From NCBI GenBank assembly GCA_963663275.1, contig OY760183.1, positions 3,168,001 through 3,232,000 on the forward strand: DNA of 64,000 bases. Reading direction: 5' to 3'. This document shows, piece by piece, positions 12,748-35,575 of the stretch. Source of the DNA: Chloroflexota bacterium (GTDB lineage Bacteria; Chloroflexota; UBA11872; VXOZ01). The notes below the pieces were generated by a model. That model ran no database searches. It was not told the DNA's origin and saw nothing but the letters and a program-made list of their open reading frames with translations. Position 1 is the stretch's first letter. Every line of letters starts with the position of its first letter. Both the position numbers and the translations under genes were made by a program.

Positions 12748-12780
12748 GCGGAGTATAGCACGGCACCAATACGTGAGCAA
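12748..12780 (-). promoter_or_regulatory. tRNA-type sigma70 promoter, copy C
   Basis: Minus strand TTGCTC-N17-TATACT with extended TG and CCGC discriminator. Confidence 0.7.
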
Positions 12781-12943
12781 TGGCTATCAGCGGGGCGACT
12801 GACCCCCTCGACCCTGTGGGCGGGGTGTTAGCGCAATGAAGCTAACACCTCGTCGCGGCGGCCGCATTGCCGGAGTGGTCGATGCGGTAGCCCGCGGCGG
12901 CTGAAAGCGGTGTGCGCGTGGGCGGCTTTCGAGCCGGACGGAC

Positions 12944-13044
12944 TCATACTTCCGCCGTCCGCCAGACGCCTTGCCGGTAGCGCCACCAGGCTCCGGCGGT
13001 GCGCGCCGCGAAGAAGGCGACCCCGGCAACGTAGACGCCGGGGA
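12944..13044 (-). pseudogene. 3' remnant of MATE transporter gene
   Basis: Near-identical to 14596-14696 (PGVYVAGVAFFAARTAGAWWRYRQG.WRTAEV*). Confidence 0.85.
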
Positions 13045-13139
13045 CATGGACGAGTATCTCAAGGACGACGACTACGGAAGTCCCTTACGCTTAAAGAGAA
13101 GCTGCCCTGGGCAGATAGTGGAGGGGCAGATCACCTGGG

Positions 13140-13898
13140 CTAACCTTGTAGGGTACCGCTCGCGCGGGTTGGGTACCGAGCGTTCGGGCTTTCAAGGATT
13201 GCGCGCTGGGATTCGGTCAGGTCTGCATAGTCATCGGGATCCAGGTAGCTGGCCGACCATGAGAGCGGGTGCGGGCTGTACTTGAAGAAGATAGTGCGGC
13301 GCTCGTCGGCGCCGTTCCAGGGAAGGGTGCCGTGGGTAAGGGCCTCGGTGAAGATGATGGCGGTGCCGGCGGGTCCGGTTACCCGCTCCACGAAAGGGCC
13401 CGGTTCGTCCATCTCTTTCCACTCTTCGGGGAACTTGAAGTTGCTCTTATGCGAGCCTGGCACGCAGCCAAAGCCGCCGTCCATGGGGCCGACATCCTTC
13501 AGATTGTAGGCAACCACGGAAAGGCCGTTATGCATCATCCCGTCATGGAAGCGGTAGTAGAACATGGGCCGGAAGGGGGCGCCGCCGCCGTGGAGGCTTG
13601 TCCCGATCGGGCCCTTGCCTGACCTGATGACATCGAGATAAACGTGGTCGAGCCTGAACTGATCGCCAAGCAGTTCGGTCAGGTAGGGTGTGATGGCCGG
13701 ATTGTCGATTAGGTCGCGGTAGTCCTTGGACCAGTGAAGCAGATGCTCAAACCTATGGGTGCGCATGTCCGTTGGGCATTCAGCGGCCATGTGCTCGTCG
13801 AGCACGCTGTTGAGCTGGGCGATCTTCTCAGGTGATAGTGCTCCCGGCACGGCAAGGTAGCCTTGAAGGTCGAACATGTAGCGCTCGTGGTCGTTCAT
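13140..13898 (-). CDS. Phytanoyl-CoA dioxygenase (PhyH) family Fe(II)/2OG enzyme
   Basis: FDLQGYL, LHGG, GGFGCVPGSHK, FTEALTHGTLPW...RR motifs. Confidence 0.88.
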   Translation of the reverse strand: MNDHERYMFDLQGYLAVPGALSPEKIAQLNSVLDEHMAAECPTDMRTHRFEHLLHWSKDYRDLIDNPAITPYLTELLGDQFRLDHVYLDVIRSGKGPIGTSLHGGGAPFRPMFYYRFHDGMMHNGLSVVAYNLKDVGPMDGGFGCVPGSHKSNFKFPEEWKEMDEPGPFVERVTGPAGTAIIFTEALTHGTLPWNGADERRTIFFKYSPHPLSWSASYLDPDDYADLTESQRAILESPNARYPTRASGTLQG

Positions 13899-14312
13899 GA
13901 GTTGTCTCCTTGTTACATGTTTTCTGGAATCAATGGCAACAGCCTTTATGCCACACTCTTTCCAGGCTCTGACTTTAGCCTACATCGACCGCCTCGATGG
14001 TCTACCACGATGCGCCAACTTAGAACTTGCCTTGCCACTCTGGAGCGCCAATCGCGGGAACCTGAATTCAATCTCTGTAACTGGAGTTTTGCCAAGGCAG
14101 CAGACATGCGCTTGCGTGGCGTCCATGATTTGCTTGCGAACGGGCGACCCTCTTCCTTCCCTAACACGGTTCCGTTCTTACCCTCCGTATTGTCAAATCC
14201 CTAAGAAACAATCTCAAAATGGTCAGCCGCCACAGTCGGCGGAACCACAAGGCGGGTCTGGCCAAATGCTACCGTGGAATAGTTCGAGTCCCCTCAGTGC
14301 TTAGCTATGAAC

Positions 14313-14389
14313 TGGTGGGCAAGGGAGGACTCGAACCTCAGATCTCCACGATGTCAACATGGCGCTCTAACCGGCTGCGCTACTTTCCC
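14313..14389 (-). pseudogene. tRNA-Val(GAC) near-intact copy, probably pseudogene (copy B)
   Basis: 77 nt, 7 differences from 35456-35532; GAC anticodon and CCA kept but mismatches in acceptor, D and T stems. Confidence 0.8.
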
Positions 14390-14399
14390 TACCTACAAA

Positions 14400-14432
14400 G
14401 CGGAGTATAGCACGGCGCCTACATGGGAACAA
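14400..14432 (-). promoter_or_regulatory. tRNA-type sigma70 promoter, copy B
   Basis: Minus strand TTGTTC-N17-TATACT with extended TG and CCGC. Confidence 0.7.
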
Positions 14433-14595
14433 TCGCCGTCGGTGGAGCAAGCGACCTTCTTGACGCTGTGGGCGGGGACTTAACGCAATGAAACTAACGC
14501 GCCGTTGCGGCGGCCGCATTGCCGCAATGGTCGATGCAGCAGCCCTCGGCGGCCGAAAACGGTGTGCGCATGGGCGGCTTGCGAGCCGGACGACC

Positions 14596-16011
14596 TCATA
14601 CTTCTGCCGTGCGCCAGGCTCCTTGCCGGTAGCGCCACCAGGCACCGGCGGTGCGCGCCGCGAAGAAGGCGACCCCGGCAACGTAGACGCCGGGGAGTCC
14701 CCAGCCGACCACGCCGGTGAGCAGCCACGCCAGCGGTACCATGACCAGGTAGCTGGCAGCCGTGGACGTGTAGAGCACCCATTTGGAGTCACCGGCGGCG
14801 CGCAGCACCGCGGCCAGCGTCATGCTCGCGGCCATGAAGGGCACCTGCAGCAACAGGAGGGGGAGAACGCGCGTTACCTCCGCTACCACAGCGACGTCGG
14901 GGGTCAGCAGGTGCAGTATTGCGGACGGCGCGACCAGCACCGGCGCCAGGACGAACGCCGGCAGGGCGGCCATCAGCAGCAGCCCGGCCCGCTGGGTGAG
15001 CGCCACCGTGCGCTCATCGTCGTTGCCAAGGCTCTGCCCGATCAGGATAGACACGCCGGTCGAAAGCGCCCAAATCATCGCCCAGAGGATCTGGTGTACA
15101 TTGGTGACGACCTGCATCCCGGCGATGACGGTGGCGCCGAGCGCGGCGACAATCCAGAGCACGAGCACGTTGTTGGCGTAGCCCAGGAAGAGCATGGCCG
15201 TCTCGGGCCAACCGATCGACCAGAGCCGCGGCAGCGCCTCCCGGGCCTGGCGCAGTCGCCCGAAGCGGAAGAGAGCGTACGTGCCGCGGAACCTTCTCCA
15301 GCCAAATTGCGCCATGTAGACGCAGCCCACGGCTACCGCGATCAGCGTCCCGACGCCCGCGCCGCGAAGCCCCCAGCCTGCCACGAAGATCAGGACATAG
15401 TTCAGCGGGACGTTGATCACGTTGACGAGGAGCGTCACGCGCATCGCCACGCCGGTCTCCCCCACGCCCGCGTAGACGGCGCGGAACATAGCCGTGGCGG
15501 CCGCGAACGGCGCGGCGAGCGCGAGTATGCGGAGATACGGCACGCCCTCGGACTGCACAACCTCGCTCAATCCGAACGCGGCGAGGAGCGGCCCTGCGGC
15601 GACGTTCAAGACCAGGAGCACCACGAGGCCGGCGCCAACGCCGATGAGCAACGAGACGTCCAGCAACCGCCCAACCGCCGCCGGCCGTCCCTCGCCGAAC
15701 CTGCGGGCCGAGATCACCTGCGCCGCGGTCGCCCATCCGCCAAACAGCATGCCCGCCGCGATGTTGATGGACGAGGCGACGGCCGCCGCCGCCAGCGCCT
15801 GAGTGGACACACGGCTGATCATCGCGGTGTCCACGACCGCAAGCACGATCTGCGAGAGATTCGCGACGACGATCGGGTAGCTCAAGGCGAGCACCCGCTT
15901 CAGCACGACCGTCTGGGCTGTTGCCACCGCGACGCCAGCTTTCGTCAAGATGGTGCGCGCGCAGCCACCGGCATGAGCGAGGGCGCATCCCGGTGGAGAC
16001 GCTTGCCGCAA
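14596..16011 (-). CDS. MATE family efflux transporter
   Basis: About 12 hydrophobic segments; LSYPIVVANLSQIVLAVVDTAMI, YLRILAL, NVPLNYVLIF, LRAAGDSK; true start uncertain (possibly GTG 15927). Confidence 0.9.
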   Translation of the reverse strand: MRQASPPGCALAHAGGCARTILTKAGVAVATAQTVVLKRVLALSYPIVVANLSQIVLAVVDTAMISRVSTQALAAAAVASSINIAAGMLFGGWATAAQVISARRFGEGRPAAVGRLLDVSLLIGVGAGLVVLLVLNVAAGPLLAAFGLSEVVQSEGVPYLRILALAAPFAAATAMFRAVYAGVGETGVAMRVTLLVNVINVPLNYVLIFVAGWGLRGAGVGTLIAVAVGCVYMAQFGWRRFRGTYALFRFGRLRQAREALPRLWSIGWPETAMLFLGYANNVLVLWIVAALGATVIAGMQVVTNVHQILWAMIWALSTGVSILIGQSLGNDDERTVALTQRAGLLLMAALPAFVLAPVLVAPSAILHLLTPDVAVVAEVTRVLPLLLLQVPFMAASMTLAAVLRAAGDSKWVLYTSTAASYLVMVPLAWLLTGVVGWGLPGVYVAGVAFFAARTAGAWWRYRQGAWRTAEV

Positions 16012-16091
16012 TCGAGCGGTCGGCGTTCATGCGGCGCGCCGTGGCCGCCACCTCCACTTATTGCGACTTCATGTCATTATGGAGTCTAGGT

Positions 16092-16120
16092 ATGGTATAC
16101 CGTCCTCATCAAGGTGTCAA
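16092..16120 (-). promoter_or_regulatory. Sigma70 promoter for MATE
   Basis: Minus strand TTGACA-N17-TACCAT. Confidence 0.6.
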
Positions 16121-16293
16121 CCTCTGTCGAGGACCGTTAGCGAGGCTGTTAGAAGGGGGATTCGTCGCTCCGAAGTCGCGCTTGGGCGGATGTGCGCCTT
16201 CCGATCGGCTACAGCCATGCGGCAGAGTCTCTCGGAACATACATGACATGAGCTATCAACAGAAGATCGTGAGGGAGCCCGGAGGCTTGTCCA

Positions 16294-16611
16294 TTAGCGA
16301 ACGGTGTTCATTTCGAGTTGGACGCCCTCGTGCTGCTGGATGCGGCTGATGACCTCGAAGAGATTGCGCGCGTGGGGGTTGCCGGCTGGCCCGAACATGC
16401 GCATCAGACTCTTGGGCGGCTTGCCGGTCAGGGAACCAAGCTCCTCGAACCCGACGGTGGCGTTGATATAGTCACGCAGGACGATCTTGCCCACATCGAC
16501 GTCCCCGGCAAGCAGGCGCTCAATACCTTCCTCGAGCAGCCCTTCGCGAAATTCCGGGTCGCGCGCGGCGCGGGTCTGGACGGTCTCTTTAGAGTCGCGG
16601 GTGAGCGGCAT
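16294..16611 (-). CDS. HTH transcriptional regulator / addiction-module antitoxin-like protein (orphan)
   Basis: MPLTRD.KETVQ.RAARDPEFR...LRDYINATVGFEEL...KSLMRMFGPAGNP. Confidence 0.8.
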   Translation of the reverse strand: MPLTRDSKETVQTRAARDPEFREGLLEEGIERLLAGDVDVGKIVLRDYINATVGFEELGSLTGKPPKSLMRMFGPAGNPHARNLFEVISRIQQHEGVQLEMNTVR

Positions 16612-16645
16612 CTTTCACGCCTCCCGCTGCATGTGACGATTGTAC

Positions 16646-18814
<2,169 letters not shown>

Positions 18815-18859
18815 CTACGCGCCGCGCGGACGTGACGTGCGCTGCTATCGCTTCGCTGT

Positions 18860-18907
18860 CGCCCAGTCGCGGCGCCGGTTAACTGCGTTGCTTGCGCTTC
18901 CCCATTG
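18860..18907 (-). pseudogene. Highly decayed 5' part of tRNA-Val (copy D), separated from its promoter by MITE insertion
   Basis: Joining across the MITE gives ctgcgttgcttgcgcttccccattgagcggagtatagcatggga vs intact ctgagctacttgcccttcctctattgcggagtatagcatggga. Confidence 0.5.
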
Positions 18908-19009
18908 GAGACCTTTGCATAACCCCTTCCCCATTGAGGGGGAAGGTTGGGATGGGGGTGAAACGGCTTGACTTCATGGCGCTGTTGGTTGTAATTGCGC
19001 TCTGGATTC

Positions 19010-20043
19010 CCTAGACTCACAAACGAAGTGCAACACTTTGCTAAGGTGTTGCCATGGGAAAACAATACACACAACTTACCATTGAAGAGCGGTGTGAAAT
19101 TGCCCGACTTCTCACCGCGAGAACCTCGCACCGGCAAATCGCTGCAACTCTGGGTCGCGCGCCATCGACGATTTCGCGGGAGGTGAAACGAAATGGATCG
19201 CAATCGGCAGGCTATGAGCCAAAGTATGCCGATGATCAGGCGTGGGCGCGGTGCTGGCGCGGCAGCAAGCTGGAGCGGGATGCCGAGTTGCGGGAGGTGG
19301 TGTTGGGATACTTGCGGGATTGTTGGTCGCCGGAGCAGGTATCCGGACGTTTGGCGCGGGAGAACGGCGCGCCGGTCGTCTCTCACGAGACCATCTATCG
19401 CTTCATCTACGGGCAGCAGGCGCGCACGAAGGACGGTAACTGGCGGCATTACCTGCCGCGCGCCAAGTCCAAACGGGGCTGGCGCGGGCGAAAGGGCGGC
19501 AGTCCGGCCTCGTTCATTGCCCAGCGCCGACCGCTGGCAGAACGGCCCCAGGCGGCGGCAGACCGCCAAACGCCCGGCCACTGGGAGGCGGACCTGATGC
19601 TCTTTCGCACCTACGGTCAAGCAGTCTTGACCCTGCACGAGCGCCACTCGCGCCTGTTGCTGGCCGCGCGACCGCCCGGCAAGGCGGCAGCGCCGATCGC
19701 CACTATCCTGCACGACCTGTTCGCCGCGCTGCCCCCAGCGTGCAGCCAGACCGTCACGTTCGACAATGGCACGGAGTTCGCACAGCATTACCGCCTCCAT
19801 GACTTGGGCATCCAAACCTTCTTCTGCGATACCCACTCGCCCTGGCAGAAAGGGGGCATCGAGAACGCCATCGGCCGCCTGCGGCGCCGGCTGCCGCGCA
19901 AGACCGACCTGGCACAGGTGAGCCAACAACGCTTTGCGCAACTGGTCCACGCCTACAACCACACCCCGCGCAAGTGTCTTGACTTCCAAACGCCAGCCGA
20001 AGTATTCATCAACCAGGTGTTGCACTTGAAATGTGAATCCACC
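19010..20043 (+). mobile_element. IS30 family insertion sequence
   Basis: ~26-bp imperfect IRs (ctagactcacaaacgaagtgcaacac / gtgttgcacttgaaatgtgaatccac), TTC duplication within CTGGATTC|CGGCTTTCGCCGGAATGAC. Confidence 0.88.
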
Positions 20044-20064
20044 TTCCGGCTTTCGCCGGAATGA
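19054..20064 (+). CDS. IS30 family transposase
   Basis: HTH RQIAATLGRAPSTISREVKRN; WSPEQ, GHWEADL, TFDNGTEF, PWQKGGIEN, N.TPRKCLDF.TP. Confidence 0.95.
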   Translation: MGKQYTQLTIEERCEIARLLTARTSHRQIAATLGRAPSTISREVKRNGSQSAGYEPKYADDQAWARCWRGSKLERDAELREVVLGYLRDCWSPEQVSGRLARENGAPVVSHETIYRFIYGQQARTKDGNWRHYLPRAKSKRGWRGRKGGSPASFIAQRRPLAERPQAAADRQTPGHWEADLMLFRTYGQAVLTLHERHSRLLLAARPPGKAAAPIATILHDLFAALPPACSQTVTFDNGTEFAQHYRLHDLGIQTFFCDTHSPWQKGGIENAIGRLRRRLPRKTDLAQVSQQRFAQLVHAYNHTPRKCLDFQTPAEVFINQVLHLKCESTFRLSPE

Positions 20065-20091
20065 CAGAGTTATGCAAAGGTCTCCCATTGA

Positions 20092-20124
20092 GCGGAGTAT
20101 AGCATGGGACGTATGCCGGGACAA
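20092..20124 (-). promoter_or_regulatory. tRNA-type sigma70 promoter, copy D (points at katG)
   Basis: Minus strand TTGTCC-N17-TATACT; 18 bp identical to the intact tRNA promoter (gcggagtatagcatggga). Confidence 0.7.
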
Positions 20125-20140
20125 TCGAGGACGGCGCGCG

Positions 20141-20488
20141 CTACTCGCTCTCTTCCGCGCCGCCCGCCTGGGCGTGCCTGGCGTGGAAGCCCCACCAGGC
20201 GAGGGCGATCACGGCAACCACGACAACGGGTATCCACACCCACGTCCACGTCTCCCACGCAATGATGCGCATCAGGAGCATCGCGGCGGAGAGGGAGAGC
20301 AGGATGCTGGGCACGTGCTGCTTCTGCAGGGACGCGATGCTACCGACGCCCATGAAGATGCCGGGGACGATGAAACTGCTCCACGGCTCATCCGTGAAGA
20401 TGACACCTACCACCTGGGCAACGACCAACCCCAACACGAACATGGCAGCGTACTTGCCAATCGACGCAGCGGAAATCATGGATGCCAC
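20141..20488 (-). CDS. Hypothetical membrane protein (~4 TM)
   Basis: Four hydrophobic stretches; GGGAG RBS upstream. Confidence 0.65.
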   Translation of the reverse strand: MASMISAASIGKYAAMFVLGLVVAQVVGVIFTDEPWSSFIVPGIFMGVGSIASLQKQHVPSILLSLSAAMLLMRIIAWETWTWVWIPVVVVAVIALAWWGFHARHAQAGGAEESE

Positions 20489-26500: not shown

Positions 26501-29500
26501 CGCCCGGCCAGCCGGCGACGGTGGCCGCCACCGCGTCGGCCAGGATCCGGTTGGAGGCCCGTGACGCCGGCGCGGCAAAGTAGTAGTCCTGCGCGCCGGG
26601 CCCTTCCCGGGGGAAGAGGATTGACAGAGGATCCACCTCGCCCCGCAGCACCTCGGCCAGCGCGCCGCCGCTGCGCCTCAGCAGTCCCAATTCGACGGCG
26701 CCGTGGGGATGCACCTCCGCTATGCGGTCGGCAAACGCTTCCGCATCGCCCAGGACTTCGTCCGGCAGCGGCTCAGCGGCGCTCAATTCCACGCGGTAGC
26801 CGCCGTTCGCGGTGTGGCTCAATTCCCCGGCGTCGGCCAACAAGCGCAGCATGCGTTCCAACAATTTCCCATGTTCCGGCAAAACGTCCAGCCGCTCCCG
26901 CAACGCTTCCGGATCGATGGCCGTCCCCGCCTCGCGCTGCCATCCCAGCCGGTGCAGGGCCGCCAAGGCGTACGAGCGAGCCAACCGCTCCAGGTCGCGC
27001 AACAGCGCCGCCCGCTCGCCGGTATTGACGCCTTCCTGAGAGAGATAGTCGGCATACGTGCCCGCGTCCGCCGCAACCGCGGACGGCCCGTTCAGCGCGG
27101 CGGCGGAGCGCAAACCGCCCGCCAGGGGACGTTCGCGCCACACGTGCTCGTACAGAAGTTCCCCCACGCCTTCCGCTGACGTCAGCAAAGACGCCCGCGT
27201 GGCGCGCTTCAGGGCAAAGCCGGTCAATTCGCCCACCGGCGCGCCGTCCGGCGTGTAGAGCCACACGTCTCCCGTAAGGGTTTCCGGCGTCAGGGCGGCC
27301 GCTTCCCCCTCTTCCTGCCCCTGCGCGCTCTCCCGCACGCGCGCGCGGCAGACAATCCGCTCAGGCAGCGGCCCGCTCAGCCGCAGCCGCTCCCAACCGA
27401 ACGGCAGGTAGGTGGCGTCGCCACCGATGCCCGCCAGGTTGCGGGCGGCCGACATGACCTGAAAGCAGCCGTCCAGCAGCAGCGGATGGAGACTCGAACC
27501 GTCGGCCTCTTCGCCGTCTTGCAGCGCGACTTCCCCCACCGCCTCGCCTTCGTCACCCCACAACGCTTCCAGGGTGCGGAAGGACGGCCCAAAGTCAATG
27601 CCGCTCGCGGTCTTGTCCCGGTAGTAGCCGTTCAGGTCCACCGCATCGAGACGCGCCCGCAGGGCCGCAAGATCCATCCTCTCGCCGTTGGACGGCCCGC
27701 CCAAGCCGTCGGAGAGCCGGCCCTCGGCGTGGAGCGTCCACTCCTCGCCGTCATCGCCTTTGCTGAAAATCTCGAAAGCGCGGGCGGCCCCGTTCTCGGG
27801 CGCGTCGACGACCAGTTGCAGCCGGCGACCCGGCTCCGGGTTTTCGTCCGGCTCCCCGTGCTCGGCGCTTTGTTCCGGGTACACCAACGGGCTGTGCAGT
27901 TGCAGTTCCTCCACCACGGCGGCGTCCGCCCCCTCGGCCAGGAGCGCGGTCGCGGCCATCGCGCCGTACACCGCCCCGGGCATCACCACCCGGCCGAACA
28001 CCTGGTGATGGTCGAGCCAGGGCGGATCCGAGGGGAACATCTCCGTCTCGTACGCGACCTCGCCACGCGGCGATTCGCGCTTTGCGCCCAGCAGCGGATG
28101 CGCCTCTTCCTCGAAATCGCCGTTCCCTGAGGCGCGCCGCCGGCCGGCCGCTACCCAGTAGCGCCGCCGCTGGAAAGGATAGCCGGGCACGGAGACGCGC
28201 TGCCGTTCTTCACCGGCGTAGAGGCCACTCCAGTCCACCGGCAGACCGGCCTGGTATGCATCGCCGACGGCGCGCATGAAAGCGTCCGCCCGTTCCGGTT
28301 CTGAGCCGTCGTAGGCCGGGCGCAGCAAGCTCTGCAAGACCGCCGGAGACGCGGCGGCGCCCGCGTTCTCAGGCCAGTTCATGGAAACCAAAGGGCCCAG
28401 TATCGCGTGGGGGCCAAGCTCGATGACGGCGTCCACGCCGAGGCGGGCCAGACTCTCGATACAGTCCCGAAAGGCCACCCGCTGCCGGGCGTGGCGCCGC
28501 CAGTACGCGCCGTCCATCCTGACTTCCACTTCCCGGCCGGTGACGTTGCTGATGAGCGGCACGGCGGGGTCTGAGACCGGCATATCCGCCAGTGCCGCCA
28601 CCATGTCGTCCAGCCCGGGCTCGACCATGGCGCTGTGGTAGGCGGGGCTGGGCCTGAGCCGCCGCACGGACACGCCCGCCGCTTCCATCTCGTCCGCCAG
28701 ACCATGCACTGCCGCGCGCGGCCCGCTGACCACCTGGTGCGTGCCGTTGTCCACGCCGATGCAAAGCTCCGCGCCGGGCTGGTTCTCGTTCCACTGAGCA
28801 ATCGCCGCCGCCACCCGGGGCGCCGGGGCAAAGATGGCCGCCATAGCCCCGTCCATGGGCAGGTCTCCCAGAATGCTCCCCCGGGCCGCGGCAAAGCGCA
28901 GGCCGTCTTCCAAAGACAGCACTCCGGCCGCCTGGGCCGCCGCGATTTCGCCCAAACTGTGGCCCACCACCACGTCGGGACGAATGCCCACGCTCTCCCA
29001 GAGCGCGGTGAGAGCGCACTCCAGAGCGTAGATGGCCGGCTGGGTCCAGCGCGGCTCATCCAAGTCCCCGGCAGCGCCGGACCGGCCGAACATCACGTCC
29101 AGCAGAGATTCTCCACGCTCTTCTCGCAGGAGCCGGTCGCAGCGGTCGAGAACGGCGCGGAAGACCGGTTCCGTCCGGTAGAGCAGCACGCCCATGCCCA
29201 CCCACTGGTTCCCCTGCCCGGTGTAGGCGAAGGCTACCTTGGACGCGGCTGTGGCGGGCGCGTCATCGGCTGTATCCGCGATCCGCCGCAACTCGTCCCG
29301 CAGCCCGCCGGCGTCCCGGAAAACCGCCGCGCCGCGCCGCTGGAAGTGGCGGCGCGCGACGCTGGCGCTCCAGGCCGCGTCGGCCAGAGCGTCGTTCGCG
29401 GCGAGATTGGCATCGCCTTCCGCGCCCTCCGCCGCGTCCGCGCCGTTCCGGTCGTCCAGCCAGTAGAGGTACGCATCGGCCGCGTCCCGCAGCGCGCCGC

Positions 29501-31091
29501 CGTTCCTGCCGGAGAGCGGCAGCACGCGCGCCGGACGAGATTCTGCCGCTGTAGGCGGCCCGTCTGCCATTGGCAGGGAAAGCCGCGCGGGAACGGCGCG
29601 CGGCGGCCCAGCCGGGGGCGTCAAGGCGGCGCCGTTCTCCGAAATGGTCGCGGCAACCTCAGGGCAACCCTCCACGATGACGTGCACGTTGGTTCCCGAC
29701 CAACCGTATGAACTGACGCCGGCCCGCGGCGGCCGGTCGGCGTTTACCGGCCACGCCGTCCGTTCTGACGTAATCTTCACCGGCAGACGCTCCCAATCCA
29801 GGCGCGGATTGGGGTCGTTGAAATGCAGGTGCCGGGGAATCGACCTGTGATGCATTGACAAGATCGCCTTCATAAACCCGGCCACCCCGGCCGCCGACTC
29901 CATGTGACCGACGTTGGTCTTGACAGAGCCGACCAGCAGCGGGCGGTCGGGCGTTCTGCCCTTGCCGTAGATTGCGGCGGCGGCGTTCAGCTCGATGGGG
30001 TCGCCCACTTCCGTGCCCGTGCCGTGGGCCTCTACGTAGTCAACCTCGTGGGGCGCGACGCGGGCCTGCCGGAGGGCATCCACGATGACGCGCTCCTGCG
30101 CGGGGCCGCTGGGGACGGTGAAGCCGGCGCTTGTGCCGTCCTGGTTGACGGCCGAGCCGAGCATGATACCCCAAATGCGGTCGCCGTCGGCCCGGGCGTC
30201 GCGGAGCCGCTTGAGCACGACCATGCCGCAGCCCTCGCCGCGCACGAAACCGTTGGCGGAGGCGTCGAAGGCTTTGCACTGGCCGTCCGGCGATAACATG
30301 CCGGCCTGGGCGCGCAACTGCGTGAGCCGTCCAAGAAAGATGGCCTGCACGCCGCCGACGACGATCATGTCGGCCTCGTCCTGCCGCAGGCTGGCTGCGG
30401 CCTGGTGCAAGGCGAGCAGCGAGGATGAACAGGCCGTGTCCACGGCCATGGCCGGCCCCTCTAACCCCAAGGCGAAGGCGACCCGGCCGGCGGCGGTGTT
30501 GAGCGACGTGCCGGCGACGGCATAGAGACTGGCGGCGGGCTCGGTCTGCTGGGCGGCGGCCATGCTGATGCCCCGGTAGTCCATGTTGCTGATGCCAAGG
30601 AAAACGCCGGTGCGGCTGCCCTTGAGTTGGGCGGGATCCACCAGCGCGTCCTCGAGCGCCTGCCAGCAGGTCTCCAGCACCATGCGCTGCTGGGGATCCA
30701 GCAGTTGCGCCTCCACCGGGGAAATGCGGAAGAACTCGGCGTCGAAGAGGTCGATGTCGTCCACCAGGGCGGCATAGCGGCAGGCCGGAATCTCATTGGC
30801 GGCCTTGGGATAGAACTGGCCGATGCGCCCCACGCCGGAACCAGGCACGCCCTCGGTGACGGCGTTGCGGCCCTCCGCCAGCAGCCGCCAGAATGACGCC
30901 AGATCCGGCGCGCCGGGAAACTTGCACGCCATGCCGATCACGGCGATCGGCTCCACGTCTCCGGCCAAGCCCGCGCCCGCGGCGGAGCCGACTTCCGCAG
31001 CCCCCCGCTCACCGTCAGGCGTGGCGCGCAACCGATCCCGCTCCAATTGCTTCAGCGTGTCGCGCTCCCGCGCGGTCGGTTCGTCGCTCAC
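20571..31091 (-). CDS. Type I PKS, SupA-like: KS-AT-DH-cMT-ER-KR-ACP-KS-AT(inactive)
   Basis: KS DTACSSS/HGTGT/GHME; AT GHSLG; DH HHQVFGRVVMP; MT EVGAGTG; ER HTASGGVG; KR GGMGGIG; ACP DLGMDSL; KS2 DMACAS; AT2 GHGAG; GTG start 31091 after GAGGAG. Confidence 0.93.
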   Translation of the reverse strand: MSDEPTARERDTLKQLERDRLRATPDGERGAAEVGSAAGAGLAGDVEPIAVIGMACKFPGAPDLASFWRLLAEGRNAVTEGVPGSGVGRIGQFYPKAANEIPACRYAALVDDIDLFDAEFFRISPVEAQLLDPQQRMVLETCWQALEDALVDPAQLKGSRTGVFLGISNMDYRGISMAAAQQTEPAASLYAVAGTSLNTAAGRVAFALGLEGPAMAVDTACSSSLLALHQAAASLRQDEADMIVVGGVQAIFLGRLTQLRAQAGMLSPDGQCKAFDASANGFVRGEGCGMVVLKRLRDARADGDRIWGIMLGSAVNQDGTSAGFTVPSGPAQERVIVDALRQARVAPHEVDYVEAHGTGTEVGDPIELNAAAAIYGKGRTPDRPLLVGSVKTNVGHMESAAGVAGFMKAILSMHHRSIPRHLHFNDPNPRLDWERLPVKITSERTAWPVNADRPPRAGVSSYGWSGTNVHVIVEGCPEVAATISENGAALTPPAGPPRAVPARLSLPMADGPPTAAESRPARVLPLSGRNGGALRDAADAYLYWLDDRNGADAAEGAEGDANLAANDALADAAWSASVARRHFQRRGAAVFRDAGGLRDELRRIADTADDAPATAASKVAFAYTGQGNQWVGMGVLLYRTEPVFRAVLDRCDRLLREERGESLLDVMFGRSGAAGDLDEPRWTQPAIYALECALTALWESVGIRPDVVVGHSLGEIAAAQAAGVLSLEDGLRFAAARGSILGDLPMDGAMAAIFAPAPRVAAAIAQWNENQPGAELCIGVDNGTHQVVSGPRAAVHGLADEMEAAGVSVRRLRPSPAYHSAMVEPGLDDMVAALADMPVSDPAVPLISNVTGREVEVRMDGAYWRRHARQRVAFRDCIESLARLGVDAVIELGPHAILGPLVSMNWPENAGAAASPAVLQSLLRPAYDGSEPERADAFMRAVGDAYQAGLPVDWSGLYAGEERQRVSVPGYPFQRRRYWVAAGRRRASGNGDFEEEAHPLLGAKRESPRGEVAYETEMFPSDPPWLDHHQVFGRVVMPGAVYGAMAATALLAEGADAAVVEELQLHSPLVYPEQSAEHGEPDENPEPGRRLQLVVDAPENGAARAFEIFSKGDDGEEWTLHAEGRLSDGLGGPSNGERMDLAALRARLDAVDLNGYYRDKTASGIDFGPSFRTLEALWGDEGEAVGEVALQDGEEADGSSLHPLLLDGCFQVMSAARNLAGIGGDATYLPFGWERLRLSGPLPERIVCRARVRESAQGQEEGEAAALTPETLTGDVWLYTPDGAPVGELTGFALKRATRASLLTSAEGVGELLYEHVWRERPLAGGLRSAAALNGPSAVAADAGTYADYLSQEGVNTGERAALLRDLERLARSYALAALHRLGWQREAGTAIDPEALRERLDVLPEHGKLLERMLRLLADAGELSHTANGGYRVELSAAEPLPDEVLGDAEAFADRIAEVHPHGAVELGLLRRSGGALAEVLRGEVDPLSILFPREGPGAQDYYFAAPASRASNRILADAVAATVAGWPGDRPLRIVEVGAGTGAGTTSVLPELPAGGYDYVFTDISAGFFAEAERRFSEVDAPIEYRPLNIERDPAEQGFDRHAYDLVIAVNVLHATRSLEETLTNCQRLLAPSGKLIAMENLRGRGWQDMTFGQLDGWWRYADDYRPHHALASPEVWRRALADVGFEDTAVLGGESPGADGPLGSGVILGQGPAEIVQDRGAWVVASDHAVAAEMLAARLAAQNQTVAVAGTAHSGGMSASDGPGVFPVQVDAEDRESWRRLLENLPGDAPLQGVVHCAALEGHGTEATTAQLAADASRTGASALALAQALQDTGLRPEKGLWILTRGAQALERDYMLESVDQLAGAALWGFGKALAREVGYLQPRMIDLEPDAPPDAGALVDEIMFPDAETHVAYRSGKRLAARLVKRGEGRSRVELPQEPDWRLAPTAGEGLEGLRAEPAAPQPLGSGDVRVAVEAAGLNFADVLISLGAVENVPVLGAEFCGRVTEVAPDVTEFRVGERVVGLGIGTFRPEVVTRAEMVARVDTAAPAAALATIPEAFVSAELSFQFTGLNAGERVLIHTASGGVGLAAIQLVRAAGAEVFATASKAKHAYLRSQGVTHVFDSRSTDFADEILQATGGAGVDVVLNTLTGPGYIEAGLACLAEGGRFVELGRRDIWTPEEMAAARPDVAYAVLALDVLKREDPATPGASLRRVMARVNDGESLAPLPFTRWPMAEVAAAMDFMRSTRHVGKIVIVMPPLAHGRLRADRAYLVTGGMGGIGTQVAGWLAERGAGVIVLNGRRPPDPPAAAAIDALRRQGADVRVELADAADPAALDAMLERLRASAPPLAGIVHSVGVLSDGSLGNQTWERYEQVLWPKVLGAWHLHQATRRQDLDLFVLFSSVTGVLGNAGQGNHAAANAFLDQLAGYRRSLGLPGQAIAWGAWSGLGEAEEQRARIERQLAASGTDWISPQQGLEAFDELVRQDQTSGMAAAVDWPMFIENFEEKPPYLEELVTEDAAADGDADTPQEDLPTRLRQAPAGEWEPLLVSLLQAETQAVLRLPTPPATTIGFFDLGMDSLMAVELRNRLNRALADEYVVSNTAVFDYPNVEALAVHLAAELSEVLSADAPAAVAEASAEPAAPQPQRERGAEDDAIAIVGMACRFPGAPDLASFWELLANGTDAISDGRQGGSDWSGTVGDPEAPDVATRRGAFVADIDLFDSRFFRIAPIEARMMDPQQRMLLETTWQALEDAGIDPESLRGSRAGVYAGVSSSEYREVAAARNAAHNYLGTTGSVAVGRVAFALGLAGPAMPLDMACASALAAVHQGVVGLQRGEVDLALAGGVNVVLSPGLSRFMMEFELLSPTGQCRPFDAAANGYVRGEGCGIVALKRLSQAEADGDRIYAVIRGSAVNQSGASAGLTVPNGPSQERVMAEALAQAGVLPSQVDYLEAHATGSPMGDPIELHAAASVYGQDRDTERPLLVGTVKSNIGHTEWAAGSAALIKTVLAMNQGVIPKHLHFENPNPNVDWEELPLRVTADETAWPDTSGRQPLAGVNAFGISGANAHVLVEGYGSPANAPTAANGAVLPAGSPQAVPVPLAEQDDGAPALEAAEGVERAARLLPLSGKSAGALRDLAERYLAWLDQLSANGGEDRPALNEALADAAWTAGVGRSHFSHRAGLVFGDAAQLRQRLRALAAADEVLDEDDPPAATKVAFLYAGPGDEWAGMAAALYRGEPVARDALDRCDAVLREARDVSLLNVFLGEPGDERDADDPALAGMAAYALGCALTAQWASVGIRPNAVVGHGAGALAAAQAAGVFTLEDGARLAMAASETATASETATGSEAADSVNSLAAPAVPLVSSATGRVVAPEDALDGGYWLRQDWQRANDGGAGDFSGCAETLARLGVDAVLEIGSDAMLGRRIGGAWPQAAPAPTVLAAPAQTADGGEAPPAHEAFTQAVAAAYAAGLNVSFGGLFAGETRRRVALPTYPFQRRRHWV

Positions 31092-31488
31092 GGCAGTCTC
31101 CTCTGTCGAATTCTGATATGCATGCGGCTGGGAGTGGTCTTCTTCAGATTGCGCGCGCCCTTTGCGCGCGCCCTCGGCCCGCTTCACGCGCGGCCTGGAA
31201 TGAAGGTGCCGGCCCGGCGCTACCCCGTGTGTCATCTGGGCCGGGCGGCGCTCTTGGATCGGGTGCTCCGGCCCGTCTGCCACGCCGCCCCGCTCGCTGG
31301 GACAGATTGCTCCCTGGAACGAGAGACCCCGCTGCTCGGCACGGCGCCGGCGCTCTTCCACGCCCCGATCGAAGCGGACGGCTATATGTCAATTATCACG
31401 CGGCGCATGACTTTTGGCAACAGATCTCCCTTGGTCTTGAACGGGGTGTGGTTGTAGGGTTGAATCAGGGTTCGACGCCGTAGGGGGC

Positions 31489-31722
31489 TTGGGAGAGATC
31501 TCGGTGGTCGACGGCGTCCTGTACGCCAACTCCCTGGACGGGTACCTGCATACGCTGGATGCCAGAACAGGAAAACCCATCCGGAGCGTCACGATCGGCT
31601 ACCACCTCGGCGGACCGGAAGAGCCCTACGTTGTCTCGGGAGGGGTGGTATACGTGGGTTATATGACAAATGAGGGGTCCAGCGGGGTGTATGCCTTCAA
31701 GGCCCCCAGCGGCGGGGAGTGA
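31489..31722 (+). pseudogene. C-terminal fragment of PQQ-like beta-propeller protein
   Basis: VVDGVLYANSLDGYLHTLDARTGK...VSGGVVYVG...GVYAF; too short for a full propeller. Confidence 0.65.
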
Positions 31723-32172
31723 TCCAGCGTATCCAACGGTGAGAGCAGGACGAGGGAAGACATCCATTCATCCTGCCAGCCCTCTGGACGCTGGAATCTC
31801 TTCTGCGCGCCCGCTCCTGCAGCGGCGTCAGCACAGTTGAAGCCCCCGTACTAAGTACGCGGCGAGGGCCAGTGGCGGCTGGCGCTGGCCGATGGGAACG
31901 ACATATTCATCGTCATTCCTTTCCTGCCGCGCCACCTGGGCGCTCCCGTCGCCGCCCTCAAGACTCTCGACGGCCAGGAAATCGGCAATGAGATAGCGGC
32001 GGCCACTGAAGAGGGCCTCTGGGCCACCTTCGTCCATCCCTCCCCCGGCGCGTCGGAGATCGTGTACGGCCACACGTGGAGCATCCGCTACGACGGGCTG
32101 CTCTTCTACTCCTCCTACTACGACGACCGCCCCGAAGTCCCCCACCCGCCGGACTGACGGTGAATCGCATTC

Positions 32173-32255
32173 CCCTGCCGGCGGCCACGCTGTGCCACGG
32201 CAGGAGAGATCGAGAAAGGTCGCGACGAAGATTTGGTGGGCTGGGGAGGACTGAA
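32173..32255. repeat. Diverged direct repeat of tRNA-Val 3' end plus its 3' flank (att-like site)
   Basis: ccctgccg..cacgctgtgcca.ggcaggagaga.cgaga...gatttggtgggc..g.gaggact matches 35395-35478. Confidence 0.75.
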
Positions 32256-32534
32256 TTGCGAACTTTTCGCTGGGAGATACTGATATAAGGAGGTGGGTCT
32301 GGTGTAAGTCCAACGCCCCTTCCGATGCCTCCCCCGACCGCGGCGTTACGACGAGCGCACTGCCCAGGCGTTGGTCGTGCTGCCCGCCGTCGCGCACACG
32401 CGGCGCCTGAGGAGCGAGAGGCCGATGGTGTGGGTCACTGCTACGTCAGCCCCCGTATCTCACAGCGTCGTGAAGGCGTTCGCCGTGGCCAGCAGGTCGA
32501 CCCAGCCCTGGCCCGCGCTCGTACCACGCCGGCC

Positions 32535-34751
32535 CTACTTTGGCGCGGCCGTTATTGAGAACTTCGTGACGCGGGTGTTGGCATCGGGAGTCCAAGAGGA
32601 GCCGCTATTGGTGGAGGCGGTGTACGTGTTGCCGATTGTCCACCCGACGGAGCCGGTTTCGTCGTTCGAGGCGGTAGCCGCCCAAGTGAAGCTGTAGCCG
32701 CTGGTGGCGCTCAGCACCAGGAAGTAGCTCGTGCCGGCGGAGAGGTCGCAGGCGGCGCCGGAGCAACTGAAGGTGTAGGCGCCGTTCGCGTCCCCCGTGT
32801 TGGTCAGCGTGACCAGGCTGCTGTTGGGGTTGGCGTTGCCGCTGCCCTTGGAGAAGATGCGCAGGGTAACGTTGCTGCTCCCGCTGCCCGGGCTGATTGG
32901 GACGGTTACTTCGGACACGGTGTAGCCGTTGGTGTTGCTGCCGGTGGTGAACTCGTTGGCAATCCACGCGCCGCCGGACGTGCTGGGCGAACCCTGCGTC
33001 GAGGTTTCCGACAGGTTGCTGACCCCTACTGGCGTCGTGAAGCTGACGGTTTGGAGCGCCGTCGTCGCGCAGGCGGAGTCGCTGTACGCCTTGTAGGTGT
33101 AGTCCGCGCCTCCCGTCAGGCTGCTGAGCGCGTGGGAGTAGTCAGACTCGCCTGCCGTGCACGTTCCGATGGTCGGCGCAGTCTCCTTCAGCCACCAGTC
33201 CCCAACGTGCCCCGCCAACGTCAGTGTGGCCGTCGTGGGGGTGATGCTGGACGCGGAGAACGAATAGAGGTCGAACGTCGTCGCCGCCACGTGGTAGTTG
33301 CAGCCGCCGTCCGAGTAGGCTGCGACGGCGTGGGTTCCGTCCTGGTAGCCCGCGATGCCGCTGACGGTGTTTCCGGACACAGCAGTGCAGGTTCCCCACC
33401 AGTTGATGCGGAACCACCAGTTGCTCGGCCCGCCGATGAGCGTGAGGGCGACCGAGCGGTCGGTGTTCACCGTAGCCGTCAGGGTTGCGGTGGGAATGGT
33501 GAATGGCGACGACGCAATCTTGGTATGGCAGCCGCTGTCGGAATAGGCGGCGACGGAGTGGGTTCCCGGCTGGTAGCCCCGGATGTTGCTGACGGTGGTT
33601 CCCGTCGCCGCCGTGCAGGCGCCCCAGTAGTTGATGCGGAACCACCAGTTGCTCGGCCCGTTGGACAAGTTGAGGTTAACCGAGCGGTCGTCGTTGACCG
33701 TGGTTGCCAGGGTTGCCGTGGGCGGCGGGTCGGGAATGACGAAATACGCATCTGTGAGGAAGTCCGTGCAACCGGCAGTGGCGAAAGCGCTGGCCTCGTG
33801 GTATCCCGGCGCGTAGCCTTGGATGCCGCTGACGGTGGTCCCGGTTACCGCCGTGCAGGAGCCGATGCCGATGCGGAAATACCAGGGGGACGGCCCGTTG
33901 GACAGGGTGAGGTCAACCGAGCGGTCGGTGTTCACCGTAGCCGTCAGGGTTGCGGTGGGAATGGTGAACGACGACGACGCAATCTTGGTATGGCAGCCGC
34001 TGTCGGAATAGGCGGCGACGGAGTGGGTTCCGGCCTTGTAGCCCCGGATGTTGCTGACGGTGTTTCCGGACGCAGCCGTGCAGGTTCCCCAGTAGTTGAT
34101 GCGGAACCACCAGTTGCTCGGCCCGTTGGACAGGGTGAGGTCAACCGAATGGTCGCTGTTCACCGTAGCCGCCAGGGTTGTGGTGGGAATGATGAAATAC
34201 GCATCTGTGAGGAAGTCCGTGCCCGCGCAGCCGGCAGTGGCGAAAGCGGTGACCTCGTGGTATCCCGGCGCGTAGCCCTGGATGCCGCTGATGGTGGTCC
34301 CGGTTACCGCCGTGCATGTGCCGATGCCGATGCGGAAGTACCAGGGGGACGGCCCGTTGGACAGGGTGAGGTCAACCGAGCGGTCGCTGTTCACCGTCGC
34401 CGTCAGGCTTGCGGCAGAAATGGTGAACGTCGTCGCTGCTATCTGGTCGGCGCAGTTGCTATCGGAATAGGCCCAGACGGAGTGTGTCCCCAGATTGTAG
34501 CCCTGGATGCCGGTGATGCTGTTGCCGGTCACCGCCGTGCAGGTGCCCCAGGAGTTGATACGGAACCACCAGTTGCCCGTATGGTTGGAGATGGCGAGGT
34601 CAACCGACTTGTCGCCGTGCACCGTCGCCGCAAGGCTGGCAGACTGCGCTGACATTGGGGATGGGTAAGAACCGGCGACGGCCAGCAGAGCCAGCAGCAG
34701 GGCGGCCAGCCTGACCCAACGGGTTGCGGAAAATGCGCTTTGCAGTTTCAT
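32535..34751 (-). CDS. Secreted repeat protein: signal peptide + six ~76-aa Cys/Trp Fn3-like repeats + one Fn3-like domain + C-terminal 'FTTGSN..GY' domain
   Basis: MKLQSAF...LAALLLALLAVAG signal; repeats TVN.DRSVDLTLSNGPS.W.FRI...CTA...C; ATG overlaps upstream stop (ATGA). Confidence 0.85.
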   Translation of the reverse strand: MKLQSAFSATRWVRLAALLLALLAVAGSYPSPMSAQSASLAATVHGDKSVDLAISNHTGNWWFRINSWGTCTAVTGNSITGIQGYNLGTHSVWAYSDSNCADQIAATTFTISAASLTATVNSDRSVDLTLSNGPSPWYFRIGIGTCTAVTGTTISGIQGYAPGYHEVTAFATAGCAGTDFLTDAYFIIPTTTLAATVNSDHSVDLTLSNGPSNWWFRINYWGTCTAASGNTVSNIRGYKAGTHSVAAYSDSGCHTKIASSSFTIPTATLTATVNTDRSVDLTLSNGPSPWYFRIGIGSCTAVTGTTVSGIQGYAPGYHEASAFATAGCTDFLTDAYFVIPDPPPTATLATTVNDDRSVNLNLSNGPSNWWFRINYWGACTAATGTTVSNIRGYQPGTHSVAAYSDSGCHTKIASSPFTIPTATLTATVNTDRSVALTLIGGPSNWWFRINWWGTCTAVSGNTVSGIAGYQDGTHAVAAYSDGGCNYHVAATTFDLYSFSASSITPTTATLTLAGHVGDWWLKETAPTIGTCTAGESDYSHALSSLTGGADYTYKAYSDSACATTALQTVSFTTPVGVSNLSETSTQGSPSTSGGAWIANEFTTGSNTNGYTVSEVTVPISPGSGSSNVTLRIFSKGSGNANPNSSLVTLTNTGDANGAYTFSCSGAACDLSAGTSYFLVLSATSGYSFTWAATASNDETGSVGWTIGNTYTASTNSGSSWTPDANTRVTKFSITAAPK

Positions 34752-35125
34752 GTCAGCCTCTCTTTCAGCCGGAACTGGGTCGCCGCGCTGGGCGGGGCAG
34801 CCGTGAACACGCCGACAATGTAACTCTTGGCGTTGTCCACGTCGAACGTGATGCTGGTGGCGCCGTGGTCGAGCGCGGCGAGTTCCCAACTCGCGCCGCC
34901 GGTCGAACTGTAGGTTACGTGGTACGTGGTCGCGCCGGAGACGGCGGGCCACGAGGCGGACAGCGTGCCGTCGGCGCGTGTCACCGACACCGAGGTGGGG
35001 GCGCCGGGCGGCGACTGCGCCAGCGCAGTAGACGGCAGCAGCGCCAGCGCGACGAGCGCCAGCGCCACGAACGCGGCGAGCCGCCACGCCGATGAAGGTC
35101 GTGAAAACACACGTCGCATTCCCAT
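34748..35125 (-). CDS. Small secreted Fn3-domain protein (probably truncated)
   Basis: Signal peptide then PPGAPTSVSVTRADGTLSASWPAVSGATTYHVTYSS..G.SW. Confidence 0.7.
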   Translation of the reverse strand: MGMRRVFSRPSSAWRLAAFVALALVALALLPSTALAQSPPGAPTSVSVTRADGTLSASWPAVSGATTYHVTYSSTGGASWELAALDHGATSITFDVDNAKSYIVGVFTAAPPSAATQFRLKERLT

Positions 35126-35282
35126 GTCATGCCTTTCAAGTAGTCACGTCAACGTGAATATACCGTGATGACTTGTCGCCCCTCTCATTGTGGGGGGAGG
35201 GCTCGACCTGGCTCCATCCTCGACACGGGGTTGAGCATGAATCGCTATGTAAGTAATGTGCCCATCAAGCACTATACACTAC

Positions 35283-35313
35283 TAGAGGACTATATACTTG
35301 TAGAGGACTATAT
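35283..35313. repeat. Direct repeat TAGAGGACTATAT x2, 18-bp period (candidate operator)
   Basis: 35283-35295 and 35301-35313, weaker third copy near 35265. Confidence 0.55.
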
Positions 35314-35455
35314 GCTATCAGAATACGTTACCCTATTGTCAACCAAATTGCCGGCTGATTAGGGTTTAGACGCAGGAATGTGGAAGGCAAGGCACCCTGC
35401 CGGGCACACGCTGTGCCATGGCAGGAGAGAGCGAGAGGGGGACGTGGCTGCGATT

Positions 35456-35532
35456 TGGTGGGCAAGAGAGGACTCGAACCTCCGGCCTCCACGATGTCAA
35501 CGTGGCGCTCTAACCGGCTGAGCTACTTGCCC
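35456..35532 (-). tRNA. tRNA-Val(GAC)
   Basis: GGGCAAGTAGCTCAGCCGGTTAGAGCGCCACGTTGACATCGTGGAGGCCGGAGGTTCGAGTCCTCTCTTGCCCACCA folds into a full cloverleaf with encoded CCA. Confidence 0.97.
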
Positions 35533-35542
35533 TTCCTCTATT

Positions 35543-35575
35543 GCGGAGTATAGCATGGGAATCACCCTTGGGCAA
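35543..35575 (-). promoter_or_regulatory. tRNA-Val promoter (copy A)
   Basis: Minus strand TTGCCC-N17-TATACT, extended TG, GC-rich discriminator. Confidence 0.75.

Follow-up and report, generated by a model that had tools for sequence, protein, structure and literature searches.

We analyzed a 64,000-nucleotide stretch of the genome of a Chloroflexota bacterium (assembly GCA_963663275.1, contig OY760183.1, positions 3,168,001 through 3,232,000; herein the window) that carries four promoter units of one valine transfer RNA family, tRNA-Val(GAC), interspersed with protein genes. Read along the minus strand, in the direction in which the units point, the locus comprises unit A with an intact tRNA gene; a type I polyketide synthase (PKS) gene; unit C, behind which an insertion sequence (IS) has landed; the catalase-peroxidase gene katG; a MatE efflux transporter gene; unit B with a decaying tRNA gene; a PhyH-family dioxygenase gene; unit D with a dead tRNA gene; and genes for a GHKL-type ATPase and a DNA methyltransferase. 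An earlier note on this DNA had proposed that the promoters outlast their tRNAs as co-opted drivers of the genes behind them ("cargo"), possibly subject to stringent control and with tRNA-like leaders cut by RNase P or Z. We find a family of homologous units in an array that recurs across the genus, and think it probable that the array grew by recombination without an integrase while surplus copies decayed.

Four Copies of One Promoter-tRNA Unit

The 13-mer TGCTATACTCCGC has four exact matches in the window, all on the minus strand (12748 through 12760, 14400 through 14412, 20092 through 20104 and 35543 through 35555). Allowing up to two mismatches adds no further match in the window (0.87 expected), and genome-wide (3,531,182 bases) exact matches are limited to these four copies. 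We label the corresponding units D, B, C and A, respectively (the labels C and D are swapped relative to the earlier note); they span 23 kb and share one direction. All four copies have a sigma-70-type layout of TTGNNN, a 17-bp spacer (16 to 18 bp being the accepted range) and the extended -10 TGCTATACT, followed by CCGC. The -35 boxes are TTGCCC in unit A (promoter 35543 through 35578, minus strand), TTGTCC in unit C (20092 through 20127, minus), TTGTTC in unit B (14400 through 14435, minus) and TTGCTC in unit D (12748 through 12783, minus); the spacers differ, and TTG lies exactly 17 bp upstream of TATACT each time. The invariance of TTG, spacing, extended -10 and GC-rich discriminator described in the earlier note therefore holds in all four copies, and the unit alignment bears out its view that the copies are homologous and belong to the promoters of a single tRNA-Val(GAC) gene family. 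A TG-extended -10 is typical for tRNA promoters of this genome; a CCGC or GC-rich discriminator is not common to them. Of the four, the promoter scan tool reports those at 20092 and 35543 (9/12, TG present); in its output for 12300 through 14700, those at 12748 and 14400 are absent.

The tRNA bodies behind the cores are preserved to different degrees. ARAGORN and Rfam (RF00005, gathering score 29 bits) call tRNA-Val(GAC) only at 35456 through 35532 (copy A, minus strand, 71.8 bits) and 14313 through 14389 (copy B, minus, 51 bits). Copy A, the intact, working gene, agrees with the genus consensus at 76 of 77 positions; copy B has six differences, including three stem mismatches identified by eye, and derived changes in it recur in the matching B copy of a relative (G010). 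Behind core D the body (12660 through 12737, minus) has 15 differences: it matches the consensus at 62/77 positions, against 48/77 for unrelated IS sequence under the same scoring. The earlier description of a barely recognizable tRNA at this core is correct, and this is a genuine dead tRNA gene, even though the Rfam tRNA model at E ≤ 10 has no match in 12550 through 12850. The decayed tRNA previously described behind core C fared differently: the stretch at 20092 is the right end of the IS, and its 48/77 agreement with the consensus is the level of unrelated DNA. Stray 3′ tRNA fragments are absent from the window, the 3′ 25-mer at up to three mismatches matching only the two called tRNAs.

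The Array Recurs across the Genus

We compared the locus with those of relatives, which are uncultured Chloroflexota/Dehalococcoidia metagenome genomes. The exact core is found in 17/17 genus genomes, the present one (G000) included, clustered at one locus. In the 17 loci taken from 16 relatives we count 35 units whose core has one listed mismatch at most; an ARAGORN-detectable tRNA-Val(GAC) follows 26 of them. Units number from one (G003, G004 and G015) to five (G005) per genome, and within each locus all are co-oriented; one further tRNA copy (L029, ~10820) has lost its promoter through rearrangement. Between units the same gene families recur, namely a SOUL heme-binding protein, a set of two DUF1538 genes with P-II and CBS genes, PhyH, and a small Gp49-like toxin-antitoxin pair; past the last unit lie variable defense genes (BrxC/D-like, PLD-SNF2, GmrSD and HsdM in relatives, the GHKL ATPase and methyltransferase here). 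Pfam searches of 34 window open reading frames (ORFs) and of 33 representative ORFs from the loci of relatives found no integrase or recombinase; the only transposases among them are IS30-type and DDE_Tnp_1.

The closest parallel in gene order is G011, with which the present genome shares the succession unit, PKS, unit, small gene, unit, PhyH. The PKS (20571 through 31361, minus strand; 3596 aa, Pfam), between units A and C, is ~70% identical to the PKS between two G011 units. After the PKS, G011 has a tRNA and a toxin gene; the corresponding place in the present genome is taken by a tRNA-like remnant followed by katG and MatE. Relatives carry the latter two genes at other places, and in G011 they are 4 kb apart on another contig.

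In relatives, tRNA-Val(TAC) and a gene for a redoxin-tetratricopeptide repeat (TPR) protein lie within some 10 to 20 kb of the array, the redoxin-TPR gene directly adjoining it; here the array is ~390 kb away from both. A local sign change of the GC skew, seen in the bin that begins at 3.40 Mb (+0.035, with surroundings at approximately -0.04), suggests an inversion, and together with the displaced tRNA-Val array this points to recent large rearrangements.

katG Has Lost Its Native Promoter Region behind Unit C

Unit C lacks its tRNA. Five nucleotides after its core lies an insertion (18907 through 20085, plus strand) that is an IS30-family element by its transposase, inverted repeats and target duplication. 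The transposase (19054 through 20064) has HTH_38 above the Pfam cut-off and rve at 31.6 bits, just under the cut-off of 32.6; the 20-nt inverted repeats (18904 through 18923 and 20069 through 20088) are 95% complementary, and a CATT duplication flanks the element (18903 through 18906 and 20086 through 20089). Eight other full copies in the genome are 97 to 98.6% identical to that of the window. Beyond these nine full copies the genome carries well over 100 short MITE-like derivatives (left ~105 nt plus right ~42 nt), and several full copies sit within a CCCTCTCCC...GGGAGAGGG palindromic repeat.

Downstream of the insertion, katG (16646 through 18790, minus strand; 714 aa, Pfam peroxidase in two stretches) is preceded by a composite leader (18791 through 18902, minus). 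Its distal part, just past the insertion point, holds a short remnant that by eye resembles the tRNA leader and 5′ end; no Rfam tRNA match at E ≤ 10 was found in 18760 through 18960. Its proximal ~45 nt are homologous to the region upstream of katG in G011. Homologues of katG, present in about 11 of 16 relatives, sit at other loci with 81 to 84% identity, and in comparison with seven relatives the upstream homology ends ~45 nt before the start; the region with the TAGAAT -10 of G011 is gone. Since the native promoter region is missing, katG was joined to unit C lacking its own promoter. Without the IS and one CATT, core C would stand 118 nt from the katG start (18790), and the promoter scan tool finds no other promoter-like site in the leader; the IS now puts 1.2 kb between them. 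The proposed promoter takeover for katG is plausible up to the arrival of the IS, which now intervenes. Among the downstream genes it is plausible for katG only, which probably relied on core C until the IS landed.

PhyH and tRNA B Form a Block Kept across the Genus

The PhyH gene (13140 through 13898, minus strand; Pfam) is a conserved neighbor of the tRNA throughout the genus. A block covering PhyH, a 415-nt spacer, tRNA B and the -10 (13036 through 14415) is 88 to 92% identical in 13 genus loci; the homology breaks off inside the promoter at 14413 through 14422, and the -35 and promoter spacer follow the upstream neighbor. In the present genome that neighbor is MatE (14596 through 16011, minus; Pfam), which lies directly upstream of unit B and in relatives occurs at other loci without a downstream tRNA. 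Because tRNA, spacer and PhyH are kept together genus-wide, PhyH is not cargo, as it had been called. At PhyH loci outside the genus (L064 through L099) a tRNA lies within 1.5 kb upstream in 0 of 36 cases, so the tRNA-PhyH adjacency arose once, in the genus ancestor. There the nucleotide homology of PhyH begins ~10 nt before the start codon. The gene itself evolves slowly: the four closest loci from other genera (L064 through L067) still match it at 84.5 to 86% of nucleotides.

The spacer (13899 through 14312) is genus-specific and, by its substitution pattern, noncoding: minor alleles per column amount to 0.95, compared with 0.96 at PhyH third codon positions, and show no 3-periodicity. A plus-strand protein gene inside the spacer was rejected for this lack of codon periodicity, and the block as a recently spread mobile cassette was rejected because the spacer varies like PhyH third codon positions and PhyH is slow to evolve.

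Sixty-five nucleotides after tRNA B, a hairpin (14219 through 14248, minus strand) with an 11-pair stem and a bulge is followed by AUUUUGAG and kept in 14 aligned sequences, making it a candidate terminator of the tRNA B transcript. Right after it comes a promoter-like TTGAGA-17-GACAAT, conserved in the genus. This arrangement suggests a candidate tRNA terminator followed by a candidate promoter of PhyH's own. Against the earlier claim that the unit B promoter drives PhyH, a predicted terminator and a candidate own promoter intervene; in its favor, the genus-specific upstream region begins with the tRNA unit.

Unit D Follows a Duplicated MatE Fragment

Upstream of unit D, the final ~100 nt of MatE are duplicated (12944 through 13043, minus strand) together with the intergenic DNA that precedes unit B. 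The duplicated flank is 237/285 identical between the two places (83% to 14413 through 14717), and an 8-nt microhomology, CCCCGGCG (13036 through 13043, minus), marks the junction of the conserved PhyH block with the MatE fragment. Inside pseudo-tRNA D, the former T-arm looks like a terminator-like hairpin (12674 through 12690) followed by a T-run, which the terminator scan tool calls, but its fold z-score is only -0.55. This predicted hairpin and T-run speak against the claim that the core at 12748 drives the GHKL and methyltransferase genes; for the claim, the promoter scan tool reports nothing else promoter-like from core D to the start of GHKL.

The GHKL-type ATPase (10428 through 12410) and the N6/N4 DNA methyltransferase (8814 through 10280), both on the minus strand, were assigned with Pfam and PADLOC (the ATPase itself having no PADLOC match) and begin a defense-gene region of low GC content, which drops to 50 to 58% over 8000 through 13000. 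The whole defense-type region (111 through 12410) encodes a 1703-aa DEAD/DpdF-like helicase fused to a UvrD/GajB-like helicase, a PLD-nuclease-like protein, a Gp49/HigB-like toxin with a helix-turn-helix (HTH) antidote, a type II/III-like methyltransferase and the GHKL ATPase.

Old Pseudo-Units of Relatives Lose the Forward Promoter and Keep Boxes That Fit the Other Strand

In a gapless comparison of units B and D, 295 of 386 positions are identical, and the 17-nt identity run at the core ranks fourth in length. The three runs that exceed it, of 52, 23 and 18 nt, belong to intergenic DNA and the dead MatE fragment, for which no function is apparent. Given how far D has diverged, we estimate the neutral chance that all ~11 key promoter bases of D stay unchanged at ~0.1 to 0.3. 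The perfect cores within this genome thus show no excess of conservation, and a joint figure for units C and D, given below, is suggestive only.

Older units allow a longer view. A family of 11 old pseudo-units in relatives, adjoining a divergent gene, was found via the 13-mer core; they retain CATGCTATAC and GGCAAGT. Mean pairwise identity among five lineages is 97% in the 13-mer core (used for finding the units) and 87% in tRNA positions 1 through 10 (not used for finding them). The other segments are close to random, at 48% for the leader that separates these boxes, 57% for the forward -35 with its spacer, and 27% for what remains of the body. The forward -7 T, present in all 27 units classed intact, is lost in 11/11 old pseudo-units (C in eight, A in two, G in one), and the forward -35 TTG is kept in two of the 11. 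From these losses it follows that the forward promoter decays once the tRNA is dead. The decay of the old pseudo-units and the rank of the core run in the B-D comparison leave the inference that selection keeps the promoters to drive cargo unsupported as a rule.

Read on the opposite strand, the surviving boxes are TTGCC(C/T), 17 to 18 nt, TAGCAT. ACTTGCC and GTATAGCATG are invariant in 12/12 aligned units next to the divergent gene (nine dead, three intact), and the only other conserved part upstream of that gene is its ribosome-binding site. By sequence, the boxes look like a promoter for the divergent neighbor with an untranslated leader of ~140 to 375 nt; a leader so long and unconserved is a weakness of this idea. 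Of the small ORFs that relatives have between an old pseudo-unit and the divergent gene, none is conserved.

In the present genome only unit A has a divergent neighbor. A candidate opposite-strand promoter (35527 through 35556, plus strand; TTGCCC, 18 nt, TAGCAT) overlaps this unit, lies below the threshold of the scan tool and faces an ORF of 513 aa (35541 through 37082, plus). The conserved start of this ORF, a GTG at 35631 placed from nine homologous loci, is 98 nt from the 5′ end of tRNA A, and the shared core is the only AT-rich -10-like segment between the two. The 513-aa ORF matches no Pfam family. It occurs genus-wide and, beyond the genus, in G017 and G036, which belong to other families of the class; most genomes carry a second, ~69% identical paralogue. 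In relatives L007 through L014, ~40 to 45 nt upstream of the 513-aa gene start, a native -10 region, GCGGAGTAT[C/G]ATGG, is similar to the core when the latter is reverse complemented. This likeness was considered as a junction and rejected: the downstream leaders are not homologous, leaving two similar -10 elements for which a shared origin is possible.

Genes Are Mostly Co-Oriented with the Units

The earlier note had all intact cargo from 8814 to 35125 on the minus strand except the IS30 transposase. For ORFs with coding-like third-codon-position GC content (GC3) or a Pfam match, this stands over 8814 through 31361, the transposase at 19054 through 20064 being the exception; over 31361 through 35125 the ORF calls are less sure, with short ORFs on both strands. 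An 850-aa ORF in that part (32535 through 35087, minus strand), between tRNA A and the PKS, consists of ~228-nt (76-aa) repeats and has no Pfam or PADLOC match; as it failed the GC3 filter, it may not be a real gene as called.

The GC skew makes the minus strand the leading strand at the array. Replication direction as the cause of co-orientation was nevertheless rejected, since long coding-like ORFs are without strand bias despite the skew: 46%, 50% and 49% of them are on the minus strand in three large regions. Counted by blocks, the excess of co-orientation is not significant.

Discussion

We favor, as the more probable account, that the four elements are paralogous copies of one ~115-bp unit of promoter plus tRNA-Val(GAC), duplicated repeatedly in direct orientation at one locus by integrase-free recombination, with surplus copies decaying. 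A piece of DNA carrying one unit would recombine with the chromosomal unit (Campbell-type homologous recombination), which would leave a complete unit on either side of the inserted genes; some junctions would instead be illegitimate, made by microhomology joins. Since only one tRNA copy is needed, the others would be free to decay: A would stay intact, B gather stem mismatches and D die, and C would have lost its tRNA at the joining of katG, the IS30-family element striking later. By sequence the promoters of B, C and D still look active, on this account because they are short targets in fairly young copies, for which demonstrable selection is not required. The predicted B transcript would consist of the tRNA and end at the conserved hairpin, and that of D would be a short dead-end RNA; the transcript of C would formerly have run into katG and now be the antisense strand of the IS. 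Whole-unit repeats, the lack of a recombinase, breakpoints at units and microhomology joins fit homologous plus illegitimate recombination, and fit an integrase less well. Sequence comparison directly shows the copies and their homology, the array throughout the genus, the IS insertion, the replacement upstream of katG and the junctions; how the units recombined, and whether they are transcribed and terminated as described, is deduced.

Several observations weigh against this account. Dead units C and D keep every key forward base, for which we estimate a joint neutral chance of ~0.03 to 0.1. Outside the genus PhyH has no homologous upstream region; its upstream region being genus-specific, the PhyH promoter lies in the spacer or is the tRNA promoter itself. 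The hairpins we call terminator-like are predictions, and that at 14219 through 14248 is not called by the terminator scan tool. Read from the maps, blocks co-oriented with the units outnumber the others by ~6 to 1 here and by ~10 to 4 in the loci of the genus; this hints at a role for transcription that starts in the units, either because it reads through or because head-on transcription is avoided. The divergence of tRNA D (15/77) exceeds what half the B-D flank divergence predicts, an excess left unexplained. Finally, neither circular or excised forms nor polymorphic junctions were seen, and the mechanism is inferred from end products only.

The explanation put forward in the earlier note is that selection has kept the stable-RNA promoters of dead or dying copies, which now drive the GHKL and methyltransferase genes, PhyH and katG with tRNA-like leaders. 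The retention of TTG, 17-bp spacing, extended -10 and CCGC in four of four copies would follow directly, as would the mostly shared orientation of the cargo, which replication strand bias fails to explain; katG, stripped of its native promoter region and once 118 nt behind core C, the lack of any other site seen by the scan tool ahead of GHKL or in the katG leader, and a genus-specific PhyH upstream region that starts with the tRNA unit all speak for it. Nevertheless we judge it unlikely. Terminator-like hairpins with U-runs are predicted inside pseudo-tRNA D and 65 nt after tRNA B, the latter followed by the conserved TTGAGA-17-GACAAT; the IS splits core C from katG; and between B and D the identity run over the core does not stand out. 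In relatives, the old pseudo-units that precede the SOUL-family gene have lost the forward -7 T in every case and the -35 in most; in two of the 10 genomes checked, no core lies within 330 nt of this gene, and the best match there has five mismatches. Processing by RNase P or Z is also doubtful, as pseudo-tRNA D is not tRNA-like to the covariance model.

Two further explanations turn on the identity of the cores. A site-specific recombinase encoded elsewhere might use the core as its crossover site, building the array and keeping the core identical through strand exchange. Homology boundaries are indeed sharp at the core, the core is identical in copies with unrelated flanks, and two short boxes 17 to 18 nt apart survive in the old pseudo-units; these boxes can also be explained as a promoter on the other strand, and the core is just as conserved in single-unit genomes, where it is simply the tRNA promoter. 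With no integrase or recombinase in any locus examined and the usual partial-tRNA direct repeats not found, we regard such an enzyme as improbable. Still less probable, and in our view very unlikely indeed, is gene conversion from the intact copy that keeps refreshing the promoter segment of dead copies. RecA-dependent exchange generally needs more identity than the 13 to 18 nt found here, flanked as these are by divergent spacer and leader, and the difference at -7 between intact units and the old pseudo-units of relatives means that no homogenization took place there. The copies do lie in direct orientation within 23 kb, with cores identical while adjoining bases differ, as conversion would have it.

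A bolder extension of integrase-free duplication would be that the ~115-bp unit is a portable two-way promoter module and homology anchor, giving an integrase-free array of co-oriented cassettes, each inheriting a strong front promoter, with katG captured in this way. On the opposite strand the first six tRNA bases (read as TTGCCC) and the palindrome-like -10 (read as TAGCAT) would then form a second promoter for a divergent neighbor, which would explain the long survival of tRNA fossils beside it. We offer this as speculation that is possible and, on balance, doubtful.

Comparison with known systems places the array between several of them. In integron cassette arrays an integrase, an attC-type folded site and a single common promoter serve a row of cassettes. 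Like these, the present locus has co-oriented gene cassettes at one chromosomal site with a repeated short element between them; unlike them, it has no integrase, attC-type folded site or single common promoter, and each repeat is a promoter with a tRNA gene. In mixed tRNA-mRNA operons such as Escherichia coli tufB, the tRNAs are functional and cotranscription has been shown by experiment. As there, a tRNA promoter could supply the transcript of a downstream protein gene, which we propose for katG and possibly for PhyH; here, by contrast, cotranscription is a prediction, there is a dead tRNA or none at all, and in two of the three cases a candidate terminator stands in between. A literature search for dead tRNA genes whose kept promoters drive their neighbors found none within the scope of that search.

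Integrase-built islands offer another comparison. The tycheposons of Prochlorococcus stack at tRNA genes and duplicate part of the tRNA (bioRxiv 10.1101/2020.12.28.424599), and Dehalococcoides islands lie at the transfer-messenger RNA gene ssrA (PMC3146451). As far as these accounts describe such islands, the likeness extends to a tRNA locus serving as hotspot, successive insertions pushing older ones along, repeated tRNA-derived sequences marking the borders, and variable and defense genes beyond the last copy. The difference is that, as outlined in those accounts, an integrase duplicates only an attachment segment there, and the repeats here comprise the entire unit with its promoter and 5′ end. 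Neither hallmark of an integrase island was found: there is no tyrosine or serine recombinase in the 34 window and 33 relatives' ORFs, and there are no partial-tRNA direct repeats in the window. Fragments of tRNA genes and pseudo-tRNAs at island borders have been reported in prokaryotes (PMC9897764, PMC3399842); they resemble the present remnants in adjoining islands as nonfunctional tRNA-like sequences, and differ, as described in those reports, in that here a family of full units retains intact promoters and an opposite-strand promoter can be read. In its workings the array would appear to combine features of a tRNA-linked island hotspot with others of a mixed tRNA-mRNA operon.

The usual signature of mobile DNA at tRNA genes is an integrase with partial-tRNA repeats; this genus shows repeats of the whole unit, with no recombinase seen. 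If our account is right, genes can be gained by plain homologous recombination at a highly conserved unit, and newly placed genes could come under a strong promoter that is already there, as may have happened to katG. A caution also follows for similar loci: a conserved "promoter" in a dead gene may serve the other strand, which the old pseudo-units of the relatives fit better.

The divergent gene beside the array in relatives, coding for the AhpC/TSA-redoxin plus TPR protein (e.g., L037, ~4085 through 4961), has a conserved in-frame TGA (WASW-TGA-GCR) with a 7-bp hairpin 16 nt past it, and the genome has a selenocysteine tRNA (tRNA-SeC); the gene looks like a selenoprotein gene split by ORF callers. 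In the present genome it lies outside the window, at ~2,790,620 through 2,791,480.

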